32,000 nucleotides of DNA. Origin: Bacteroidota bacterium. Lineage in GTDB: Bacteria > Bacteroidota > Bacteroidia > B-17B0 > Aurantibacillaceae. Below the pieces are notes generated by a model. The model searched no databases, was not told the origin of the DNA, and worked only from the letters and a program-made list of their open reading frames with translations. This document shows positions 4,575 through 23,581 of the stretch, piece after piece. The first letter of the stretch is position 1. Every line of letters starts with the position of its first letter. The stretch is from the NCBI GenBank assembly GCA_003153315.1, contig PLYA01000036.1, positions 205,858-237,857 on the forward strand. Direction: 5' to 3'. Position numbers and translations under genes: made by a program.

Positions 4575-5330
4575 TTAAGAAATAACCACCCTAAACACTT
4601 TGGTGGGAGTACCCATCACGGCTTTTTTGCCTTTGCCTTTTTCTTGCATATAAAACAGGGCTGCCATGCCTTCTTCGGCTTCGGTAAAGTTGGCGGTAAG
4701 GGTGCCGCGTACCAAATCACCCAGGTAGGTATAGCCCGAAGTTTTTACCGCAGGGTCGGGTATGGTGGTTAGGTTGGCGGCCTGTATCAGTATAAATATC
4801 ATGGCTTCTTTTACGCCTTTGCGCTTGGCTTTGCTGGTGGTGCCGGGGTAGTTAATTTCAATTTCTATGCTTAGGTGTATTTGGTGTTTCATGCTAAGGT
4901 ACATGGGCAGCAGCTTGCCGGTTGCCTCGGTGCTTATGGTAGAGGTGGTACGCGTGCCACTTGGCACGGTAATGCGCATAGCTTTTTTTTGCGTAGCCGT
5001 TACCCGTTTATTATTGGCAATATAACTTTTTATAAACATACGGATACTGGTATCGGTACCAATTTTTACATTGCCGCTTTCATAGGCTTGGCGTGCTCCT
5101 TTTAGCTCGGTTTCATTACTGTGTTTAAATTCTTTGCTGCTTACTATTGCCCAAGCGGCTTGCCAACGGGCTTGTTTCACATTTCCGGTGCCTGTAAGGG
5201 TTGCCCAATCAGCAACGGCATCGCTGTTCCAGTTCCAACCGGCTTTAAAAGCGTTTACCTGATTTACAAAGTTAATTTCCCAAGCGGCAAACTCGGCGTT
5301 GGGGGCGGGGATAAAATCATGATCTGGCAT
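4575..5330 (-). CDS. orphan protein (helical N-terminal half, beta-rich C-terminal half); module-1 gene downstream of the 21-bp array
   Basis: 251-aa ORF, visibly more GC-rich than its neighbours, with an ATG start and its own terminator. No family recognised. In-frame TAA stops upstream of the ATG exclude an extension into the repeat array. Confidence 0.75.
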   Translation of the reverse strand: MPDHDFIPAPNAEFAAWEINFVNQVNAFKAGWNWNSDAVADWATLTGTGNVKQARWQAAWAIVSSKEFKHSNETELKGARQAYESGNVKIGTDTSIRMFIKSYIANNKRVTATQKKAMRITVPSGTRTTSTISTEATGKLLPMYLSMKHQIHLSIEIEINYPGTTSKAKRKGVKEAMIFILIQAANLTTIPDPAVKTSGYTYLGDLVRGTLTANFTEAEEGMAALFYMQEKGKGKKAVMGTPTKVFRVVIS

Positions 5331-5368: not shown

Positions 5369-5578
5369 GACGTTCCCTGAAACTTTGCAGACACGTCCTG
5401 AAGATAATTGGGCATGTCCTGAAGGTAACTGGACACGTCCTGATAATACGAGGACACGTCCTGATGAAACGAGGGCATGTCCTGATGAAACGAGGGCATG
5501 TCCTGAAGGTAACCGGACACGTCCTGACGATAACTGGACACGCCCTGATGAAACAAGGACATATCCTGAAACTTGTTT
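5369..5578 (-). repeat. array 1: 10 head-to-tail direct repeats, exact 21-bp period
   Basis: Plus-strand units start at 5369, 5390, 5411, 5432, 5453, 5474, 5495, 5516, 5537 and 5558. Examples: gacacgtcctgatgaaacgag and ggcatgtcctgaaggtaactg. Consensus GRCAYGTCCTGA + 9 variable nt. No indels between units. Confidence 0.95.
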
Positions 5579-5807
5579 GCTAACCCCTACTATATAGTTC
5601 GGCAAGCTCACTAACAAGTGTGGGGTTTTAGGCATCTTCTCTATGTATGTGGTTGTTTTCATTTTGTTACAGTAAAATTAACGAAAAATAGTTGAAACTC
5701 TTTCATTAAGTTTTCAACCGTTGGCGGGGGTGCGGTTCGCATCTTTTTCAATGTTTTAGGGGCTTGTATCGGTATAATCTTATTTTATAGGGACGGCGCT
5801 TTTTGAG

Positions 5808-5815
5808 TATATTTG
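5808..5815 (+). promoter_or_regulatory. candidate Bacteroidota -7 promoter box (TAnnTTTG)
   Basis: TATATTTG matches the consensus exactly and ends 7 nt before the ATG at 5823. No convincing -33 TTG was checked. Confidence 0.3.
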
Positions 5816-18522: not shown

Positions 18523-20109
18523 ATGGCATTGAAAAAAAAGATAAAAACTTCTTCTTCTGATTTTAAATCCGAATTAGAATTACATCTAAAAAAATTCTCC
18601 ACTAATCCATACTTATTTATTGGTTCAGGGTTATCGAGAAGGTATTTAAACTTACCGACTTGGCTTACTTTTCTTGAAAGCTTTTACTCTACATTAAACT
18701 TAGATAAGCAGTTTGAATATTATCAATCAAAGTCAAATGGCAGCCTTCCTTTATTAGCATCCATTATTGGAAACGAATTTCATGCAAAATGGTGGGAGCT
18801 TCCTGCTTTTAAGAATAGTAGGGAGTTATATAAAGATTTAGCCAAAGAAAACGAATTATCTCCTTTTAAGATTGAGATCGCAAATAATATAAGAAAGCAT
18901 TCCGTTCCAAATAAAGATTTTGAGGAAGAAATAAATCTATTGAAAAGCTCAGTAATAGATGGGATTATTACAACTAATTGGGATAATTTTTTAAATGAAT
19001 TATTTTCTGACTTCAAGCCTTATATCGGACAACAAGAACTTATGTTTGCTGATTCTTTTTCGGTAGGAGAATTATATAAAATACACGGTTGTTGTTCAAA
19101 GCCAAATAGCATAGTAGTAACAGAGGAGGATTATAAAAATTTCAATTCTAAAAACGCTTATTTAGCCGCAAAATTGCTTACCATTTTTGTGGAACACCCT
19201 ATTATTTTTATTGGCTATTCTATTTCTGATAAAAATATAACGGAATTTTTAAACTCAATTGTTGCGTGTGTAGATACAGAGAGCGTAAAAAAACTTAAAG
19301 ACCGTTTAATATTTGTTGAATGGTCGTCCAAAGCAACTAAAAATAAAATATCAGATAGTAATATTGTTCTTGCAAGCGGATCTGTCTTACCAATCAAGCA
19401 TATTGAAGCGCATAGTTTTAAAGAGTTATTCGAGGTTTTAGCAAGTTTAAAAAAGCGATTACCAGTTAAAATCCTAAGGCAATTAAGGGATGCGGTTTAT
19501 GATTTGGTAAAAACAAATAATTCGAGCAAAACAAAACTTGTTGGAGACTTATTAAATAATGAACATACTGAGGATATAGAATTTGTTATTGGTGTTGGCG
19601 CAACCTCTTTTACGGAACAGGGATATAAAGGAATAACCGCACTTGAAATATTAGAGGACGCAATATTAGAAAACAAGGATTTCGACTGTATAAAGCTGGT
19701 TGAACTTACAATTCCACAAATGATAAAAAGTTCTGTCTACTTACCTGTTTATAAACACTTAAGAAAGGCAAAACTTCTTGACGAAAAAGGAAATATTATT
19801 AAATCATATAACCATTCTGAAAAACTTATTGAGTTTTTAAAAACTAATAAGGTCGAAACCTATTATCCTTCGGATAGCTATGCAAGAAAAAGGTCTGAAA
19901 TTCGAAAAAAATATGGAACCGTTCAAAGCATAACTAGTTCATTCGATAAGGTACATGCATTATATTATATTCCTTTATTAGAAAAGGAAAACATAGATTT
20001 AAAGGATTTAAAGAAATTTTTAAAAGACTGTTTTAATGATGCTACAGTAAAAAAAGATACAACCTTTAAAAAGGTAGTTTGTCTTTATGACTATTTAAAA
20101 TACAATTAA
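18523..20109 (+). CDS. SIR2_2-type sirtuin-like protein with an unassigned C-terminal half (candidate NADase defence effector)
   Basis: Ordered SIR2_2 motifs: FIGSGLSRR (aa 32-40), ITTNWDNFL (Asn152), LYKIHGC (His188), IIFIGYSISD (aa 227-236). Residues from about 290 to 528 have no recognisable domain. The gene is visibly AT-richer than the flanking genes. Confidence 0.8.
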   Translation: MALKKKIKTSSSDFKSELELHLKKFSTNPYLFIGSGLSRRYLNLPTWLTFLESFYSTLNLDKQFEYYQSKSNGSLPLLASIIGNEFHAKWWELPAFKNSRELYKDLAKENELSPFKIEIANNIRKHSVPNKDFEEEINLLKSSVIDGIITTNWDNFLNELFSDFKPYIGQQELMFADSFSVGELYKIHGCCSKPNSIVVTEEDYKNFNSKNAYLAAKLLTIFVEHPIIFIGYSISDKNITEFLNSIVACVDTESVKKLKDRLIFVEWSSKATKNKISDSNIVLASGSVLPIKHIEAHSFKELFEVLASLKKRLPVKILRQLRDAVYDLVKTNNSSKTKLVGDLLNNEHTEDIEFVIGVGATSFTEQGYKGITALEILEDAILENKDFDCIKLVELTIPQMIKSSVYLPVYKHLRKAKLLDEKGNIIKSYNHSEKLIEFLKTNKVETYYPSDSYARKRSEIRKKYGTVQSITSSFDKVHALYYIPLLEKENIDLKDLKKFLKDCFNDATVKKDTTFKKVVCLYDYLKYN

Positions 20110-20189: not shown

Positions 20190-21044
20190 ATGAAACAACA
20201 AAACGCCATACAACTATTCGAAGACAAAAAGGTAAGAACCCTTTGGGATGCCGAGCAAGAAAAATGGTACATATCCATTATTGATGTTATTGAAATATTA
20301 ACCAATACCGATAGACCCCGAAAATACTGGAGCGATTTAAAAACCAAACTTAAAAACGAAGGAAGCGAGTTGTCCGAAAAAATCGGACAACTGAAAATGC
20401 AATCTGCCGATGGAAAATACTACAAAACAGATGTAGCTGATACAGAGCAGCTTTTCAGGCTTATACAATCTATACCCTCGCCAAAAGCCGAGCCCTTTAA
20501 ACTATGGCTGGCGCAGGTTGCCAACGAGCGGTTAGACGAAATGCAAGACCCCGAACTTGGTATAGACCGCGCGCTGGAACAATACCTACTACTGGGCTAC
20601 TCCGAAAACTGGATAAACCAACGCCTTAAAAGTATTGAAATAAGAAAAGAACTTACCGACGAGTGGAAAAAACGGGGCTTAAAACAAGGGCAACAATTTG
20701 CCACCCTTACTGATATTATTACCAAAGCTTGGGCGGGCAAAACCACCAAAGAGTATAAGGTGTTGAAAGGTTTAAAAAAAGAAAACCTTAGAGATAACAT
20801 GACCAACACCGAACTTATTTTAAACATGCTTGCCGAAGCTTCTGCAAAAGATATTTCTCAAGCTGTAAACCCCAAGGGTTTTTCGGCAAGTAAAAAAGTT
20901 GCCGCACAGGGCGGCAATGTAGCCAAAGTAGCACGCAAAGAACTGGAAGCCAAAACAGGCAAAAAGGTGGTAACAGCCTTAAATGCAAAAGCCGTTTTGC
21001 AACAAAACAAAAGCGCGAAAAACCTGGGCACAAAAAAGAAATAA
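20190..21044 (+). CDS. Bro-N domain / DinD-like (DNA-damage-inducible protein D family) protein
   Basis: N-terminal Bro-N-like VRTLWDAEQEKWYISIIDVIEIL, then the conserved block DVADTEQLFRLIQSIPSPKAEPFKLWLAQVANERLDE. The C-terminal NMTNTELILNMLAEA region parallels E. coli DinD. Confidence 0.8.
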   Translation: MKQQNAIQLFEDKKVRTLWDAEQEKWYISIIDVIEILTNTDRPRKYWSDLKTKLKNEGSELSEKIGQLKMQSADGKYYKTDVADTEQLFRLIQSIPSPKAEPFKLWLAQVANERLDEMQDPELGIDRALEQYLLLGYSENWINQRLKSIEIRKELTDEWKKRGLKQGQQFATLTDIITKAWAGKTTKEYKVLKGLKKENLRDNMTNTELILNMLAEASAKDISQAVNPKGFSASKKVAAQGGNVAKVARKELEAKTGKKVVTALNAKAVLQQNKSAKNLGTKKK

Positions 21045-21048
21045 GTAA

Positions 21049-21098
21049 AACCTTAAACCCTCCTCACATAACTTTCGTTTATCATTCGCTCCACATCC
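21049..21098. repeat. left 50-bp direct repeat; detached copy of the 3' end of the HTH gene (21696-21956)
   Basis: aaccttaaaccctcctcacataactttcgtttatcattcgctccacatcc matches 21692-21741 at 47/50. Its reverse complement reads DVERMINESYVRRV*. Confidence 0.85.
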
Positions 21099-21123
21099 AA
21101 ACAACCAAACACAACTAATTATA

Positions 21124-21180
21124 CCCTTCGACAGGCTCAGGGTACGGAAGCCACTCGGTCGTTGAGCTTGTCGAAACGCC
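21124..21180 (+). repeat. REP-type long hairpin element (copy A)
   Basis: Stem ttcgacaggctca (21127-21139) / tgagcttgtcgaa (21163-21175) with one G-T position. A nearly identical copy lies at 21631-21686. Confidence 0.8.
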
Positions 21181-21218
21181 CGAAGCAAATAATAAAAAAT
21201 ATCCCTACTTTTATAATC

Positions 21219-21518
21219 ATGAAGGGCTATATGTATATATTACAATGCGCCAATGGGTTTTATTATACTGGCAGCACTATAGATTTAGGGCTTCGTATTA
21301 AACAACATCAGAATGGAGAGGGGGCTAATTTTACAAAAAAGCACTTACCCGTTGTTTTAGTTTATTTCGAAGAGTTTCAAAGAATTGATGAAGCATTTAA
21401 TAGAGAGAAACAAGTACAAGGCTGGAGCCGAAAAAAGAAAGAAGCATTAATTAATAGCGAGTACAACAAACTCCCCGAACTGTCTAAGAATTATACACAA
21501 TATAAAGCAGATGATTAA
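21219..21518 (+). CDS. GIY-YIG nuclease family protein (UPF0213/Slx1-like, about 100 aa)
   Basis: MKGYMYILQCANGFYYTGSTIDLGLRIKQHQNG...EAFNREKQVQGWSRKKKEALI contains the GIY..YTG, R, and E..K.W.R motifs. ATG 21219 is chosen because the track start at 21162 is a TTG inside the REP element. Confidence 0.85.
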   Translation: MKGYMYILQCANGFYYTGSTIDLGLRIKQHQNGEGANFTKKHLPVVLVYFEEFQRIDEAFNREKQVQGWSRKKKEALINSEYNKLPELSKNYTQYKADD

Positions 21519-21544
21519 TACTTTTGTCGTTAGTGTTAAGTTTC

Positions 21545-21686
21545 GGACGTTGAGCCCATTCAGTGGTCGTTGAGCTCTCGGTCATTGAGCTTGTCGAAAC
21601 GCCCGCTGTGAAAAACATGTTACAATTGTACCCTTCGACAGGCTCAGGGTACGGTTGCTCTCGGTCGTTGAGCTTGTCGAAACGCC
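21545..21686 (+). repeat. REP cluster: partial tandem copies (gtcgttgagc x3) plus full hairpin copy A' (21631-21686)
   Basis: acgttgagccc, gtcgttgagctc and gtcattgagcttgtcgaaacgcc, then cccttcgacaggctcagggtacggttgctctcggtcgttgagcttgtcgaaacgcc. Confidence 0.8.
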
Positions 21687-21691
21687 GAAAC

Positions 21692-21741
21692 AACCTTAAG
21701 CCCTTCTCACATAACTTTCGTTTATCATTCGTTCCACATCC
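21692..21741. repeat. right 50-bp direct repeat (functional 3' end of the HTH gene)
   Basis: 47/50 identical to 21049-21098. The reverse complement reads DVERMINESYVRRA*. Confidence 0.85.
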
Positions 21742-21956
21742 TCCACCTTATAATACACCTTTTTCCCAATCACAATATAAGCAACCTTCCCAAGCGTTCT
21801 CCAGCGCAATGCCGTTCGTTTAGATATGTTCATCAACATAATAAACTCCTGGTTATCAATAATTCCTTGTGGTCTGTTTTTGTTCACCACCTCCGGGTTC
21901 AAAATCTTTGCACCCCTGTACACTTCCTTTTTTACTAAAATCTGTTCCATCTGCAT
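21696..21956 (-). CDS. helix-turn-helix (HTH_17 / excisionase-MerR-like) DNA-binding protein
   Basis: NISKRTALRWRTLGKVAYIVIGKKVYYKVEDVERMI matches the HTH_17 pattern (TlyrWr..G.l....ig....y...dve) common in Bacteroidota mobile elements. Confidence 0.72.
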   Translation of the reverse strand: MQMEQILVKKEVYRGAKILNPEVVNKNRPQGIIDNQEFIMLMNISKRTALRWRTLGKVAYIVIGKKVYYKVEDVERMINESYVRRA

Positions 21957-22161
21957 TACATATTACAAACCTAAAACTACAAAATAATTAGCAACAAAAA
22001 GCTAAAAATTTTAGCAATTACCATAACCGCCTGATAATAATATTCTTAAAAAACAGGTTCAGCTAAAAGCCATATAGCGCCACATTGGGTCATCTCCCGC
22101 CAAAGGCAGCCGGCATGCGCCATACGCTACCAAGCCCTTGCAAAGCGCCTTGCTCCCACCC

Positions 22162-22169
22162 TACTTTTG
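22162..22169 (+). promoter_or_regulatory. candidate -7 promoter box (TAnnTTTG), with a possible -33 TTG at 22138-22140
   Basis: TACTTTTG matches exactly, with a TTG 21 nt upstream. If used, array 2 would be transcribed as a leader of roughly 0.46 kb for the 22641 gene. Confidence 0.3.
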
Positions 22170-22236
22170 CCAAGGGTTTTGATAATAAAAGCAAAACCGG
22201 AAAAAGAAATCTTACCAAAAAAACTTAAAAGTATGA

Positions 22237-22530
22237 CTGATTTTGCAAAACACCCACATGATTTAGCAAAAAGTGTAACCGGCTTAACAAATTGTACGGA
22301 CGATTTCTCAAAAAGTATGAGCGTGTTTAAAAATCATGTACCCAATTTTAAAAAACATCTGCATGATTTAGTAAAAGGTATAAACGATTTGATAAATCAG
22401 TTGAACGATTCATCAAATCTTCCGCACGACTTTGCAAAAAGCACGCAAGCGTTGCAAAAACATTCAACCGATTTGCGAAATCGTTTGCACGATTTACTAA
22501 AAAGTATGTACGTCTTTGCAAATCGTATAA
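22237..22530 (+). repeat. array 2: 14 head-to-tail direct repeats, exact 21-bp period
   Basis: Units start at 22237 + 21n. Examples: acgactttgcaaaaagcacgc, acgatttactaaaaagtatgt, ccgatttgcgaaatcgtttgc. Consensus aCGATTTgCAAAAAg + about 6 variable nt. No indels. Confidence 0.9.
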
Positions 22531-22640
22531 CAAAAAACATAAGAGCTGTTTTTTACAGGAATAAAAGTCCGCCGCGGCGCAAAAACGTAAACTTCATTTC
22601 TTATAACCTGATAATTATTAACTATAAAAAACCAAAAAAT

Positions 22641-23321
22641 ATGTCCAATCCAAAAGCAGCATTAAACATGCCCAATAAAATAGGCGATAAAATAATACGC
22701 GCCCAATCTATACAAACCAAGCTTACAGGAAACGCCAATTTCCCTGTTGGTAGTTGGCCTGCCAACATAGTAAGTTTAACCCAGTTTGGTACCGATGTTA
22801 CGACGCTAGTAACTACCGAAACGGCGGTTGTAAATAAAACAGGCACGGTGGCAGCACGAAACGCCGCTCTTACCGTAGTACTAACCGACCTGCGCGCATT
22901 AAAAACCATGGTGCAGGTAAAAGCCGATGCCAACCCGGCTAATGCAGCTAATATTATTATAAGCGCAGGGTTTATTGTAGTAACGCGCAGCAATCATAGT
23001 AAAAGGCAAAACCAGGCCTTAAACACCGAGGTACTTGGCACCGTATTGCTTACTGCCGATAAAGGAGGGCACCACGAGTGGCAAATGAGCAAAGATGGCG
23101 GAACCACCATTGTTAATCTGCCCGCTACCACTACCAGCATTACAAAAGTAACAGGCCTAAACCCGGGCGATGTATGGTATTTTAGGAACCGTAAAGTGAA
23201 CACTAAAAAAACCACTTATAACTGGAGTACCTGGCTTAAGTTAATTATAGGTCCGGGTGGAAAAACCACAGGAGGTGGAAACCAATCGGGTGTGGCTGGT
23301 AGTTTACCAAATACTTTATAA
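22641..23321 (+). CDS. orphan protein with helical N-terminal half and Fn3-like C-terminal beta-sandwich; module-2 gene
   Basis: ATG 22641 (MSNPKAALNMPNK). The C-terminal HEWQMSKDGGTTIVNLPATTTSITKVTGLNPGDVWYFRNRK...YNWSTW resembles an Fn3 signature. More GC-rich than the surroundings and has its own terminator. The track ORF extends upstream to 22167 through the repeat array (alternative ATG at 22233). Confidence 0.72.
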   Translation: MSNPKAALNMPNKIGDKIIRAQSIQTKLTGNANFPVGSWPANIVSLTQFGTDVTTLVTTETAVVNKTGTVAARNAALTVVLTDLRALKTMVQVKADANPANAANIIISAGFIVVTRSNHSKRQNQALNTEVLGTVLLTADKGGHHEWQMSKDGGTTIVNLPATTTSITKVTGLNPGDVWYFRNRKVNTKKTTYNWSTWLKLIIGPGGKTTGGGNQSGVAGSLPNTL

Positions 23322-23341
23322 ATACTATTTTGATATGTACT

Positions 23342-23375
23342 AAAAGCCCTGCAGTTCTTGCAGGGTTTTTATTTT
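23342..23375 (+). terminator. Rho-independent terminator
   Basis: Stem ccctgca (23347-23353) / tgcaggg (23359-23365), followed by TTTTTATTTT. Confidence 0.8.
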
Positions 23376-23394: not shown

Positions 23395-23410
23395 TGTTTC
23401 ACGTGAAACT
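23395..23410. other. parS-like ParB-binding site 1
   Basis: TGTTTCACGTGAAACT matches 15/16 positions of the Bacillus-type consensus TGTTNCACGTGAAACA. The 14-bp core is a perfect palindrome. Intergenic. Confidence 0.6.
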
Positions 23411-23565: not shown

Positions 23566-23581
23566 TGTTCCACGTGGAACT
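23566..23581. other. parS-like ParB-binding site 2
   Basis: TGTTCCACGTGGAACT matches 14/16 to consensus. The GTTCCACGTGGAAC core is a perfect palindrome. It lies 2 nt from the stop codon of the methyltransferase gene (stop at 23584-23586). Confidence 0.55.

Follow-up and report, generated by a model that had tools for sequence, protein, structure and literature searches.

Tandem arrays of 21-bp units were found beside genes for basic proteins, a widespread pairing that is kept in no fewer than two protein families with a common predicted architecture. The association is well established and of a new kind, and we have little doubt that the array-gene module is real. No description of the module was found in full-text literature searches. 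The window, that is the whole stretch of 32,000 nucleotides analysed (Bacteroidota bacterium, contig PLYA01000036.1), has a GC content of 37% and resembles a Bacteroidota chromosome with ordinary housekeeping genes of the radA, mnmG, tpiA and prmA types. It holds two arrays, and the claim of a preliminary description of this DNA that they are the same kind of element was borne out, each being phased at 21 bp and located upstream of a family gene. The second of these modules comprises the following features.

22216..22530, no strand assigned: array 2, a partial unit followed by fourteen full 21-bp units, recognised by periodicity, register and the orthologue L001
22641..23321, plus strand: fam2 gene encoding a 226-aa basic protein, supported by 94 homologues, third-position divergence from L001 and an AlphaFold2 model
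23341..23371, plus strand: stem of 14 pairs ahead of a T run, the rho-independent terminator of fam2

Repeat structure of array 2

Fourteen units of exactly 21 bp had been placed head-to-tail between 22237 and 22530 in the phase 22237+21n, and these coordinates all proved correct, with the units quoted at that time located at 22426, 22489, 22300, 22468 and 22279. A partial fifteenth unit (approximately 22216-22236) precedes the first full one. Self-identity of the array was 0.549 at a lag of 21, 0.52 at 42, 0.567 at 63 and 0.557 at 84, against 0.36 at the best lag outside the multiples of 21; the highest value over lags 2-99 averaged 0.35 in 1000 dinucleotide shuffles, with a ceiling of 0.401. 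Units at least half the array apart were 0.57 identical at shift 0 versus at most 0.35 at other shifts. Since these distant units match best at shift 0, the array lacks internal indels and its strict phasing was confirmed. Tandem Repeats Finder at score 30 did not detect array 2 because its units are only about 56% alike, and autocorrelation replaced this program for array detection; array 1 was reported by it at 5390-5570 with a period of 21.

The conserved columns of the units (cGATTT...AAA) concur with the consensus given previously. The palindrome TTTGCAAA, noted earlier in the best units, was not above chance, with a perfect arm of 5 nt at most (P=0.3 in shuffles). The units are contiguous, without the intervening unique spacers of a CRISPR array, and the end of the array lies 110 bp upstream of ATG 22641 on the same strand, as originally described. 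Array 2 is a real, strictly phased, non-coding element upstream of the gene.

Array 1 and the fam1 gene

The other array in the window is located on the opposite strand to the fam2 gene, together with a second gene and a conserved region.

5390..5570, minus strand: array 1, approximately nine units of 21 bp with the core CAGGACRTGYCC, upstream of the fam1 gene
4575..5330, minus strand: fam1 gene encoding a 251-aa basic protein with predicted N-terminal helices and a C-terminal FN3-like sandwich, 48 homologues
5571..5811, minus strand: conserved region ahead of array 1; it contains the inverted repeat GTTGAAAAC..GTTTCAAC, and a 109-aa ORF that crosses the array begins in it

Distant unit pairs of array 1 were 0.77 identical at shift 0. 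All seven of the homologous fam1 loci that were fetched had a 21-bp array directly upstream of the gene, with 40-60 bp between array end and start codon in fam1 loci. In L047-L049 identity to the region at 5571-5811 was about 95%, and its array-proximal part, beginning at the inverted repeat, was recognisably conserved in L044 as well; the arrays behind it differed completely. The fam1 protein of the window and P0096 were 92% identical with the array cores CAGGACATGTCCTG and CCGGCTATAGCCGG, respectively. The orthologue L047 carried the core CCGGCTATAGCCGG behind the 95% identical leader where array 1 has CAGGACATGTCCTG, with the terminal unit alone still alignable. Several fam1 arrays had palindromic cores of 8-14 bp, and variants within these palindromes, read by eye, were not compensatory. 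In L044-L048 and also in L025, the gene after the family gene often had a type IX secretion sorting domain (Por_Secre_tail).

Distribution of arrays beside family genes

The genes downstream of the two arrays had been considered orphans, but both belong to families: a profile search of 1.84 billion representatives placed the 226-aa protein in a family of 2,499 clusters at 50% identity, and 48 homologues were found for fam1. Forty-two loci encoding homologues of the 226-aa protein were collected, followed by five loci of distant relatives (L050-L054), all with arrays, and two added loci without one, L056 and L055, the latter too short to tell. An array was present in 45 of 57 loci (264 kb), and all 49 detected arrays were within 450 bp of a family gene, where the bases within 700 bp of such a gene make up 26% of the 264 kb. 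Across the window and the first 42 loci the lags 21, 42, 63 and 84 stood out and no other. Array-bearing loci ranged from 34% to 71% GC and the arrays from approximately 8 to 28 units. Register was kept over at least half of the length in 33 of 37 arrays, with a slip of 1-2 bp in the other four. Loss of phasing or of the association in relatives had been set out beforehand as the result that would count against the element, and the outcome was strongly in its favour.

Three arrangements were observed. In the window and L001 the array is directly upstream of the gene with a spacer of about 110 bp. In a second class the array lies upstream of a promoter-like motif: a sigma-54-like sequence, TTGGCRCR-N4-TTTG, starts approximately 5-35 bp after the array in eight loci (L009, L011, L012, L025, L031, L034, L035 and L039) with a conserved leader of about 270 nt behind it, whereas L026 has an upstream array and no such motif. 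An array downstream of the gene was the commonest arrangement, including L053 and L054, and many loci of this class had a rho-independent terminator between the stop codon and the array. Arrays are found outside the transcript of the gene as often as inside it. The leader of about 270 nt (L009 2712-2975, L011 1145-1412, L012 2711-2978) precedes many family genes, may be a structured 5' UTR and contains a near-invariant AGCGCATGAT; partial matches occurred in L002, L003, L010, L021 and L024 and none was detectable in the window.

Coding potential of the arrays

An ORF of 384 aa (22167-23321) runs through array 2 into the fam2 gene, and the public annotation starts at ATG 22233 to give 362 aa. 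Two features are relevant here.

22167..22640, plus strand: spurious 5' ORF extension, an open frame, with the extension present only in the self-match P0001
22531..22640, plus strand: spacer from array 2 to the start codon, non-coding, nine differences in 108 nt relative to L001

As 21 bp corresponds to seven codons, the array could be a translated heptad repeat, whether it extends the protein N-terminally from ATG 22233 or belongs to a coupled upstream ORF. The window and L001 each have one open frame across array and spacer against an expectation of 0.14-0.23, and in this frame array 2 reads as xDLxKxx heptads with hydrophobic residues at heptad positions 3 and 7. In all fam1 loci an ORF starting upstream crosses the array and stops 2-16 nt before the ATG of the gene. 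Some long members of the family, for example P0219, P0238, P0233 and P0260, had N-terminal extensions with a periodicity of seven residues, which we take to be arrays translated as an ORF; the DNA for P0219, on a contig of 71% GC, has 20 units of GGCCTCGCGCCGCCCGAGGTT approximately 140 bp upstream of a Shine-Dalgarno sequence and ATG.

The comparison with homologues argued against translation under selection, and in particular against array 2 being the N-terminus of a protein of 363-384 aa, the alternative raised in the preliminary description. A search of 5.8 billion proteins gave 94 homologues, all of 203-237 aa, which start near ATG 22641 and aligned to the last 226 residues only; the sole entry of 362 aa (P0001) is this locus itself. 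In the closest orthologous locus, L001, the protein was 94% identical, the flanking genes were the same and the array had 15 units in the same open frame, one 21-bp unit apart from the window. Differences between the two loci at the first, second and third codon positions numbered 12, 6 and 56 in the gene (226 codons; 47 synonymous and 15 non-synonymous codon changes), 28, 34 and 29 in the array (100 codons; 12 synonymous and 53 non-synonymous) and 2, 4 and 3 in the spacer (36 codons), so that a codon-position bias was seen in the gene and in neither the array nor the spacer. Array 2 is under no protein-coding constraint. Divergence from L001 was 8% in the spacer and about 5% in the block upstream of the array, compared with about 25% at synonymous sites and about 30% in array 2. 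The spacer is probably a 5' UTR and/or promoter because it is more conserved than the synonymous sites.

In the upstream and downstream classes 23 of 30 arrays were stopped in all six frames, and open frames occurred on either strand at the rate seen in column-permuted controls. Translation therefore cannot explain the shared period. The peptide repeat was also not conserved between related arrays, and the DNA core common to the window and L044 was read in different frames. Taken together, a translated heptad repeat is very improbable and array 2 is, in all likelihood, non-coding.

Turnover of the repeat units

Paralogues within one genome mostly had their own unit sequence; in one MAG with nine copies, eight arrays represented six sequence types. 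Two loci with an identical protein (L045 and L046) had arrays that differed by 42 bp, and from this difference and the 21 bp between the window and L001 it follows that copy number varies in whole units. Conservation of the unit columns was strongly uneven in 27 of 37 arrays, with cores of approximately 8-14 bp and variable spacers, in a test partly confounded by 42-bp super-repeats. Between the window and L001, positional pairs of units were 70% identical versus 55% for non-positional pairs, and the same core position had changed from A to G in eight of fourteen unit pairs (CGATTT to CGGTTT), which argues against pure drift. The mean best arm of dyad symmetry was 5.2 nt compared to 4.2 nt in shuffles, a weak enrichment that was absent from many arrays. 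Unit sequences turn over fast while the period of 21 bp and the size of approximately 8-28 units are kept.

Such turnover, the variable copy number, the register shift of 1-2 bp in four arrays and the very degenerate arrays of L005, L016 and L018 could be expected of an inherited, slippage-prone minisatellite that serves as a neutral VNTR, a generic spacer or curved DNA without any further function. Under this explanation it is difficult to account for an array that stays beside its gene from 34% to 71% GC, in two families without detectable sequence similarity and through rearrangement from upstream to downstream, or for a period that never drifts from 21 even though the units are replaced. 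The conserved core columns and the parallel change of one core position also speak against it. Static curvature, calculated by a wedge model, was 14.2 versus 14.0 degrees per 21 bp with no consistent excess, and it was dropped as a general explanation. Bacterial VNTR or contingency repeats of promoters and leaders usually have units of 1-9 bp, exert their effect by altering frame or spacing, and show no link to a single protein family in different phyla. They share with the present arrays a variation in whole units between close strains and differ from them in unit length, mode of action and the tie of the 21-bp arrays to a protein family. A functionless or purely structural minisatellite is accordingly considered improbable.

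Predicted proteins and gene neighbourhood

The AlphaFold2 model of the fam2 protein (pLDDT 88.6) combined a four-helix bundle at the N-terminus with a C-terminal FN3 domain and a Gly-rich tail that is disordered, and that of the fam1 protein (pLDDT 69.8) combined N-terminal helices with an FN3-like sandwich. Foldseek searches with both models returned FN3 matches only, which are generic. Median pI was 9.8 for fam2 and 9.5 for fam1 with a net charge of about +10, and no hydrophobic signal-like stretch was seen by eye at either N-terminus; the fam2 protein is regarded as small, very basic and cytoplasmic. A Lys/Arg-rich loop of the FN3 domain was conserved (FRNRKVNTKK in fam2 and SKAKRKGVK in fam1), and the motifs HEWxxSxD and GDxWYFR were near-invariant while the arrays varied. 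Neither protein matched Pfam, PHROGs, NCBIfam, PADLOC or PDB sequences, and no member of either family turned up in viral contigs. Comparison of the fam1 and fam2 profiles detected no homology (probability 0.6%), and their similarity is one of predicted architecture only. Fusions in which a flagellar hook/rod FlgE/F/G D1 domain (Pfam PF22692) precedes the family domain occur in some of the distant relatives, a match supported at E 2e-7 for P0183, at E 3e-4 for P0274, which is below the Pfam cut-off, and by a similar N-terminus only for P0276.

No partner gene was common to three or more loci. Many neighbours of family genes were nevertheless defence genes, although the neighbours themselves are not conserved. 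Two candidate systems are located side by side just upstream of array 2.

18523-20109: PDC-S25, SIR2_2 domain, candidate single-gene defence system (PADLOC E 4.5e-169)
20190-21044: PDC-S13, Bro-N domain, candidate single-gene defence system (PADLOC E 2.4e-135)

In other loci genes for ThsB-TIR, a STAND NTPase, Cas9 and AbiJ were found downstream of the family gene, and the L009 array was preceded by a GajA/Old-like ATPase. On the minus strand at 21696-21956, divergent from array 2 and its surroundings, is an ORF of 86 aa with an excisionase/MerR-like helix-turn-helix (by eye); because it is confined to the window and L001, it does not qualify as a general array partner. Small ORFs with an XRE-type helix-turn-helix were located directly upstream of the family gene and co-directional with it in three loci only (L006 2693-2959, L037 98-334 and L038 2225-2461).

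Two further segments distinguish the window from L001. An insertion of about 600 bp at 21098-21697, absent from L001, is probably a small mobile element and includes a GIY-YIG ORF (21162-21518), a flanking duplication of about 40 bp and a short repeat (..TTCGACAGGCTCAGGGTAC.. / ..GAGCTTGTCGAAACGCC..) that recurs at 2580-2830 of L001. Past the fam2 gene, 14-bp perfect palindromes with a CACGTG core, GTTTCACGTGAAAC and GTTCCACGTGGAAC, were present at 23396-23409 and 23566-23579, and the 146-bp segment between them was not alignable with L001 while both flanks were.

Transcription of the arrays and possible RNA or enhancer roles

Upstream of array 2 a further conserved feature was identified.

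22060..22232, plus strand: conserved non-coding block with a -7 box and a predicted hairpin, conserved relative to L001

The aligned part of this block (22100-22232) was about 95% identical to L001. The Bacteroidota-type -7 box TACTTTTG is present at 22162-22169 as reported before, is conserved in L001 and is followed by a predicted hairpin (22175-22198), which is the first element of the predicted leader fold. No terminator was predicted between array 2 and the gene (22531-22640). The suggestion that the whole array is transcribed as a leader is possible for this locus on account of the conserved box and hairpin, and it does not hold as the general mode because the arrays of other members are upstream of the sigma-54-like promoter or behind the terminator of the gene. 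A -7 box reading into the array was found for 4 of 37 arrays. In the window and the fam1 loci the array is probably inside the transcript, and a role for the RNA may therefore be considered.

In an RNA-based explanation the transcribed array would bind the neighbouring basic protein as a multi-site sponge or antidote, comparable to ToxI or CsrB, or would form a structured 5' leader that tunes translation. The promoter box and hairpin ahead of the array in the window and L001, the short distance between the fam1 arrays and their start codons and the existence of multiple modules per genome, which differ in unit sequence and, like toxin-antitoxin modules, are often neighbours of defence genes, would fit such a role. 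Folding z-scores of the leader and both strands were between -2.6 and -4.3, which is moderate and symmetric; no strand-specific signal was seen, with the minus strand (z -4.3) at least as strong as the plus strand (z -2.9). The arrays of the upstream class are 5' of the promoter-like motif and those of the downstream class are behind a terminator with no promoter reading in, and the palindromic-core variants, as noted above, were not of a compensatory type. Rfam 15 at gathering score gave no match in the window or six related loci apart from an unrelated Flavo-1 RNA (RF01705, 53 bits) in L012 at 394-472 on the minus strand, approximately 2 kb from the module.

Type III toxin-antitoxin systems (ToxIN, CptIN and TenpIN) are the closest RNA-based likeness. 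Both they and the present modules have a repeat array directly upstream of the gene on the same strand that is often misannotated as an ORF, and both are multi-copy, fast-evolving and found in defence-island neighbourhoods. Known type III antitoxins have 34-45 nt units in 2-6 copies, in contrast to 21 nt units in 8-28 copies here. Their toxins are ToxN, AbiQ, CptN or TenpN, whereas the present proteins had no Pfam or PADLOC match and a predicted FN3 fold that is not ToxN-like. The layout of the window and the fam1 loci is compatible with such a system, in which array and toxin gene belong to one transcript with a terminator between them, yet there is no predicted terminator in 22531-22640, and the upstream-class and downstream-class loci, with many arrays outside the transcript, contradict it. 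The analogy fails for want of a ToxN-type toxin, and co-transcription with the array is doubtful for the modules as a whole. An RNA role for the repeats is unlikely on these results.

The array could instead be a set of binding sites for a trans factor encoded elsewhere, such as a nucleoid protein or a sigma-54 activator, for which it would be the enhancer or upstream activating sequence. The -24/-12-like motif directly after the array in the eight upstream-class loci points in this direction, enhancer-type sites can act from either side of a gene as known for NtrC, and the protein changes little as the array changes. Against this, one MAG can have up to nine copies with mostly distinct units and no linked activator gene, and we know of no activator site cluster nearly as large as 8-28 sites. 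A search of the window for the sigma-54 motif TGGCAC-N5-TTGC with at most one mismatch gave six matches, all far from arrays 1 and 2. A trans-acting binder of this type is considered a rather improbable explanation. A position weight matrix scan for extra copies of the units singled out only L038 (P=0.00) and the window (P=0.03), where the extra unit-like site is about 1.2 kb downstream of the start codon and past the end of the gene; neither site is near a promoter, and none was found near the promoters of downstream-class loci.

A proposed DNA lattice

The best explanation, which we hold at somewhat less than an even chance, is that the array is a DNA lattice whose binding sites share one face of the helix and probably serve the adjacent protein. 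A lattice at the DNA level was favoured because the arrays occur outside the transcript of the gene as often as inside it and because translation cannot explain the period of arrays closed in every frame. That the array acts as DNA appears to us evenly balanced, and the adjacent protein is put forward tentatively as its binder. As 21 bp is two turns of B-DNA, the conserved core of 8-14 bp in each unit would lie on the same face of the helix, and array 2 could present a lattice of about 14 sites to a protein that binds cooperatively. The most likely binder would be the product of the neighbouring gene, the most economical candidate because nothing else is conserved nearby, and the length of its two domains could set the repeat of 21 bp (about 7 nm). 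At array 2 the lattice would lie between a putative promoter (-7 box at 22162-22169) and the start codon, where the bound protein may be a roadblock, an autoregulator or a protein store.

The constant association of array and family gene, the non-coding nature of the arrays, the uneven unit columns (27 of 37 arrays), the palindromic cores of fam1 arrays, the basic proteins and an array position that is independent of the transcript were counted in favour of the lattice. Close orthologues with very different arrays and few scattered protein changes were counted against it, as were a dyad symmetry that is not general, a curvature that is not elevated, the lack of extra units near downstream-class promoters, the generic nature of the FN3 matches and the probable location of the array inside the transcript in the window and the fam1 loci. 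FN3 domains are, to our knowledge, not known as DNA binders. Because HEWxxSxD and GDxWYFR are near-invariant while the arrays vary, any read-out of the sequence would have to come from elsewhere on the protein.

A more specific and rather doubtful form of the lattice is a widespread, undescribed two-component system whose modules collect in defence islands and whose basic protein would polymerise along an array private to it and phased at 21 bp. With a protomer for every two helical turns, a locus-specific nucleoprotein filament would result, and the array of each paralogue would co-evolve rapidly with it. Such a filament might be a new type of addiction or defence module in which the array restrains the protein, or a bacterial chromatin-like element.

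Comparison with iterons and partition sites

Besides the type III toxin-antitoxin systems, the closest analogies are plasmid iterons and partition centromeres, and each of the three fails a defining feature that was tested. The iterons of P1 incC/incA, F incB/incC and R6K (22-bp) are tandem repeats of approximately 19-22 bp that flank a Rep gene. They resemble the present arrays in having direct repeats about two helical turns apart beside one gene with unit sequences that vary between relatives, and the repeat length here is within the iteron range of approximately 17-22 bp with a period of exactly 21 and a kept register. Iterons number 3-9 units compared with 8-28 here. The analogy fails on the fold and the location: Rep is a winged-helix protein borne on a plasmid, whereas a helical bundle and FN3 domain without a Pfam, NCBIfam or PDB match were predicted for the present proteins, whose genes are chromosomal, between housekeeping genes and in up to nine copies per genome.

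Partition centromeres (R1 parC, F sopC and the iterons of pSK41 and pB171) are bound by ParR or ParB, double as operators and are coated by filaments. They share with the present modules a phased repeat array next to the operon of a binding protein. A ParA, ParM or TubZ gene belongs to those systems, whereas a single ParA-like gene (L003) was seen among about 20 neighbours examined here, and there was no ribbon-helix-helix or helix-turn-helix fold and no plasmid setting. This analogy fails because there is no motor ATPase.

Implications

Public annotations that read the arrays as N-terminal extensions of 70-170 residues or as small heptad ORFs are probably wrong, and those of P0001, P0219, P0238 and the called ORFs in L044-L046 are probably among them. 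If the lattice is correct it would constitute a new class of protein-nucleic-acid pairing that is defined by a repeat length of two helical turns and not by sequence. A large family of about 2,500 clusters, uncharacterised so far and extending from AT-rich Bacteroidota to bacteria of 71% GC, would also gain a role, and FN3 domains in bacteria possibly a nucleic-acid-linked function. The modules are often located beside defence genes and may therefore point to a new mechanism of defence or addiction.
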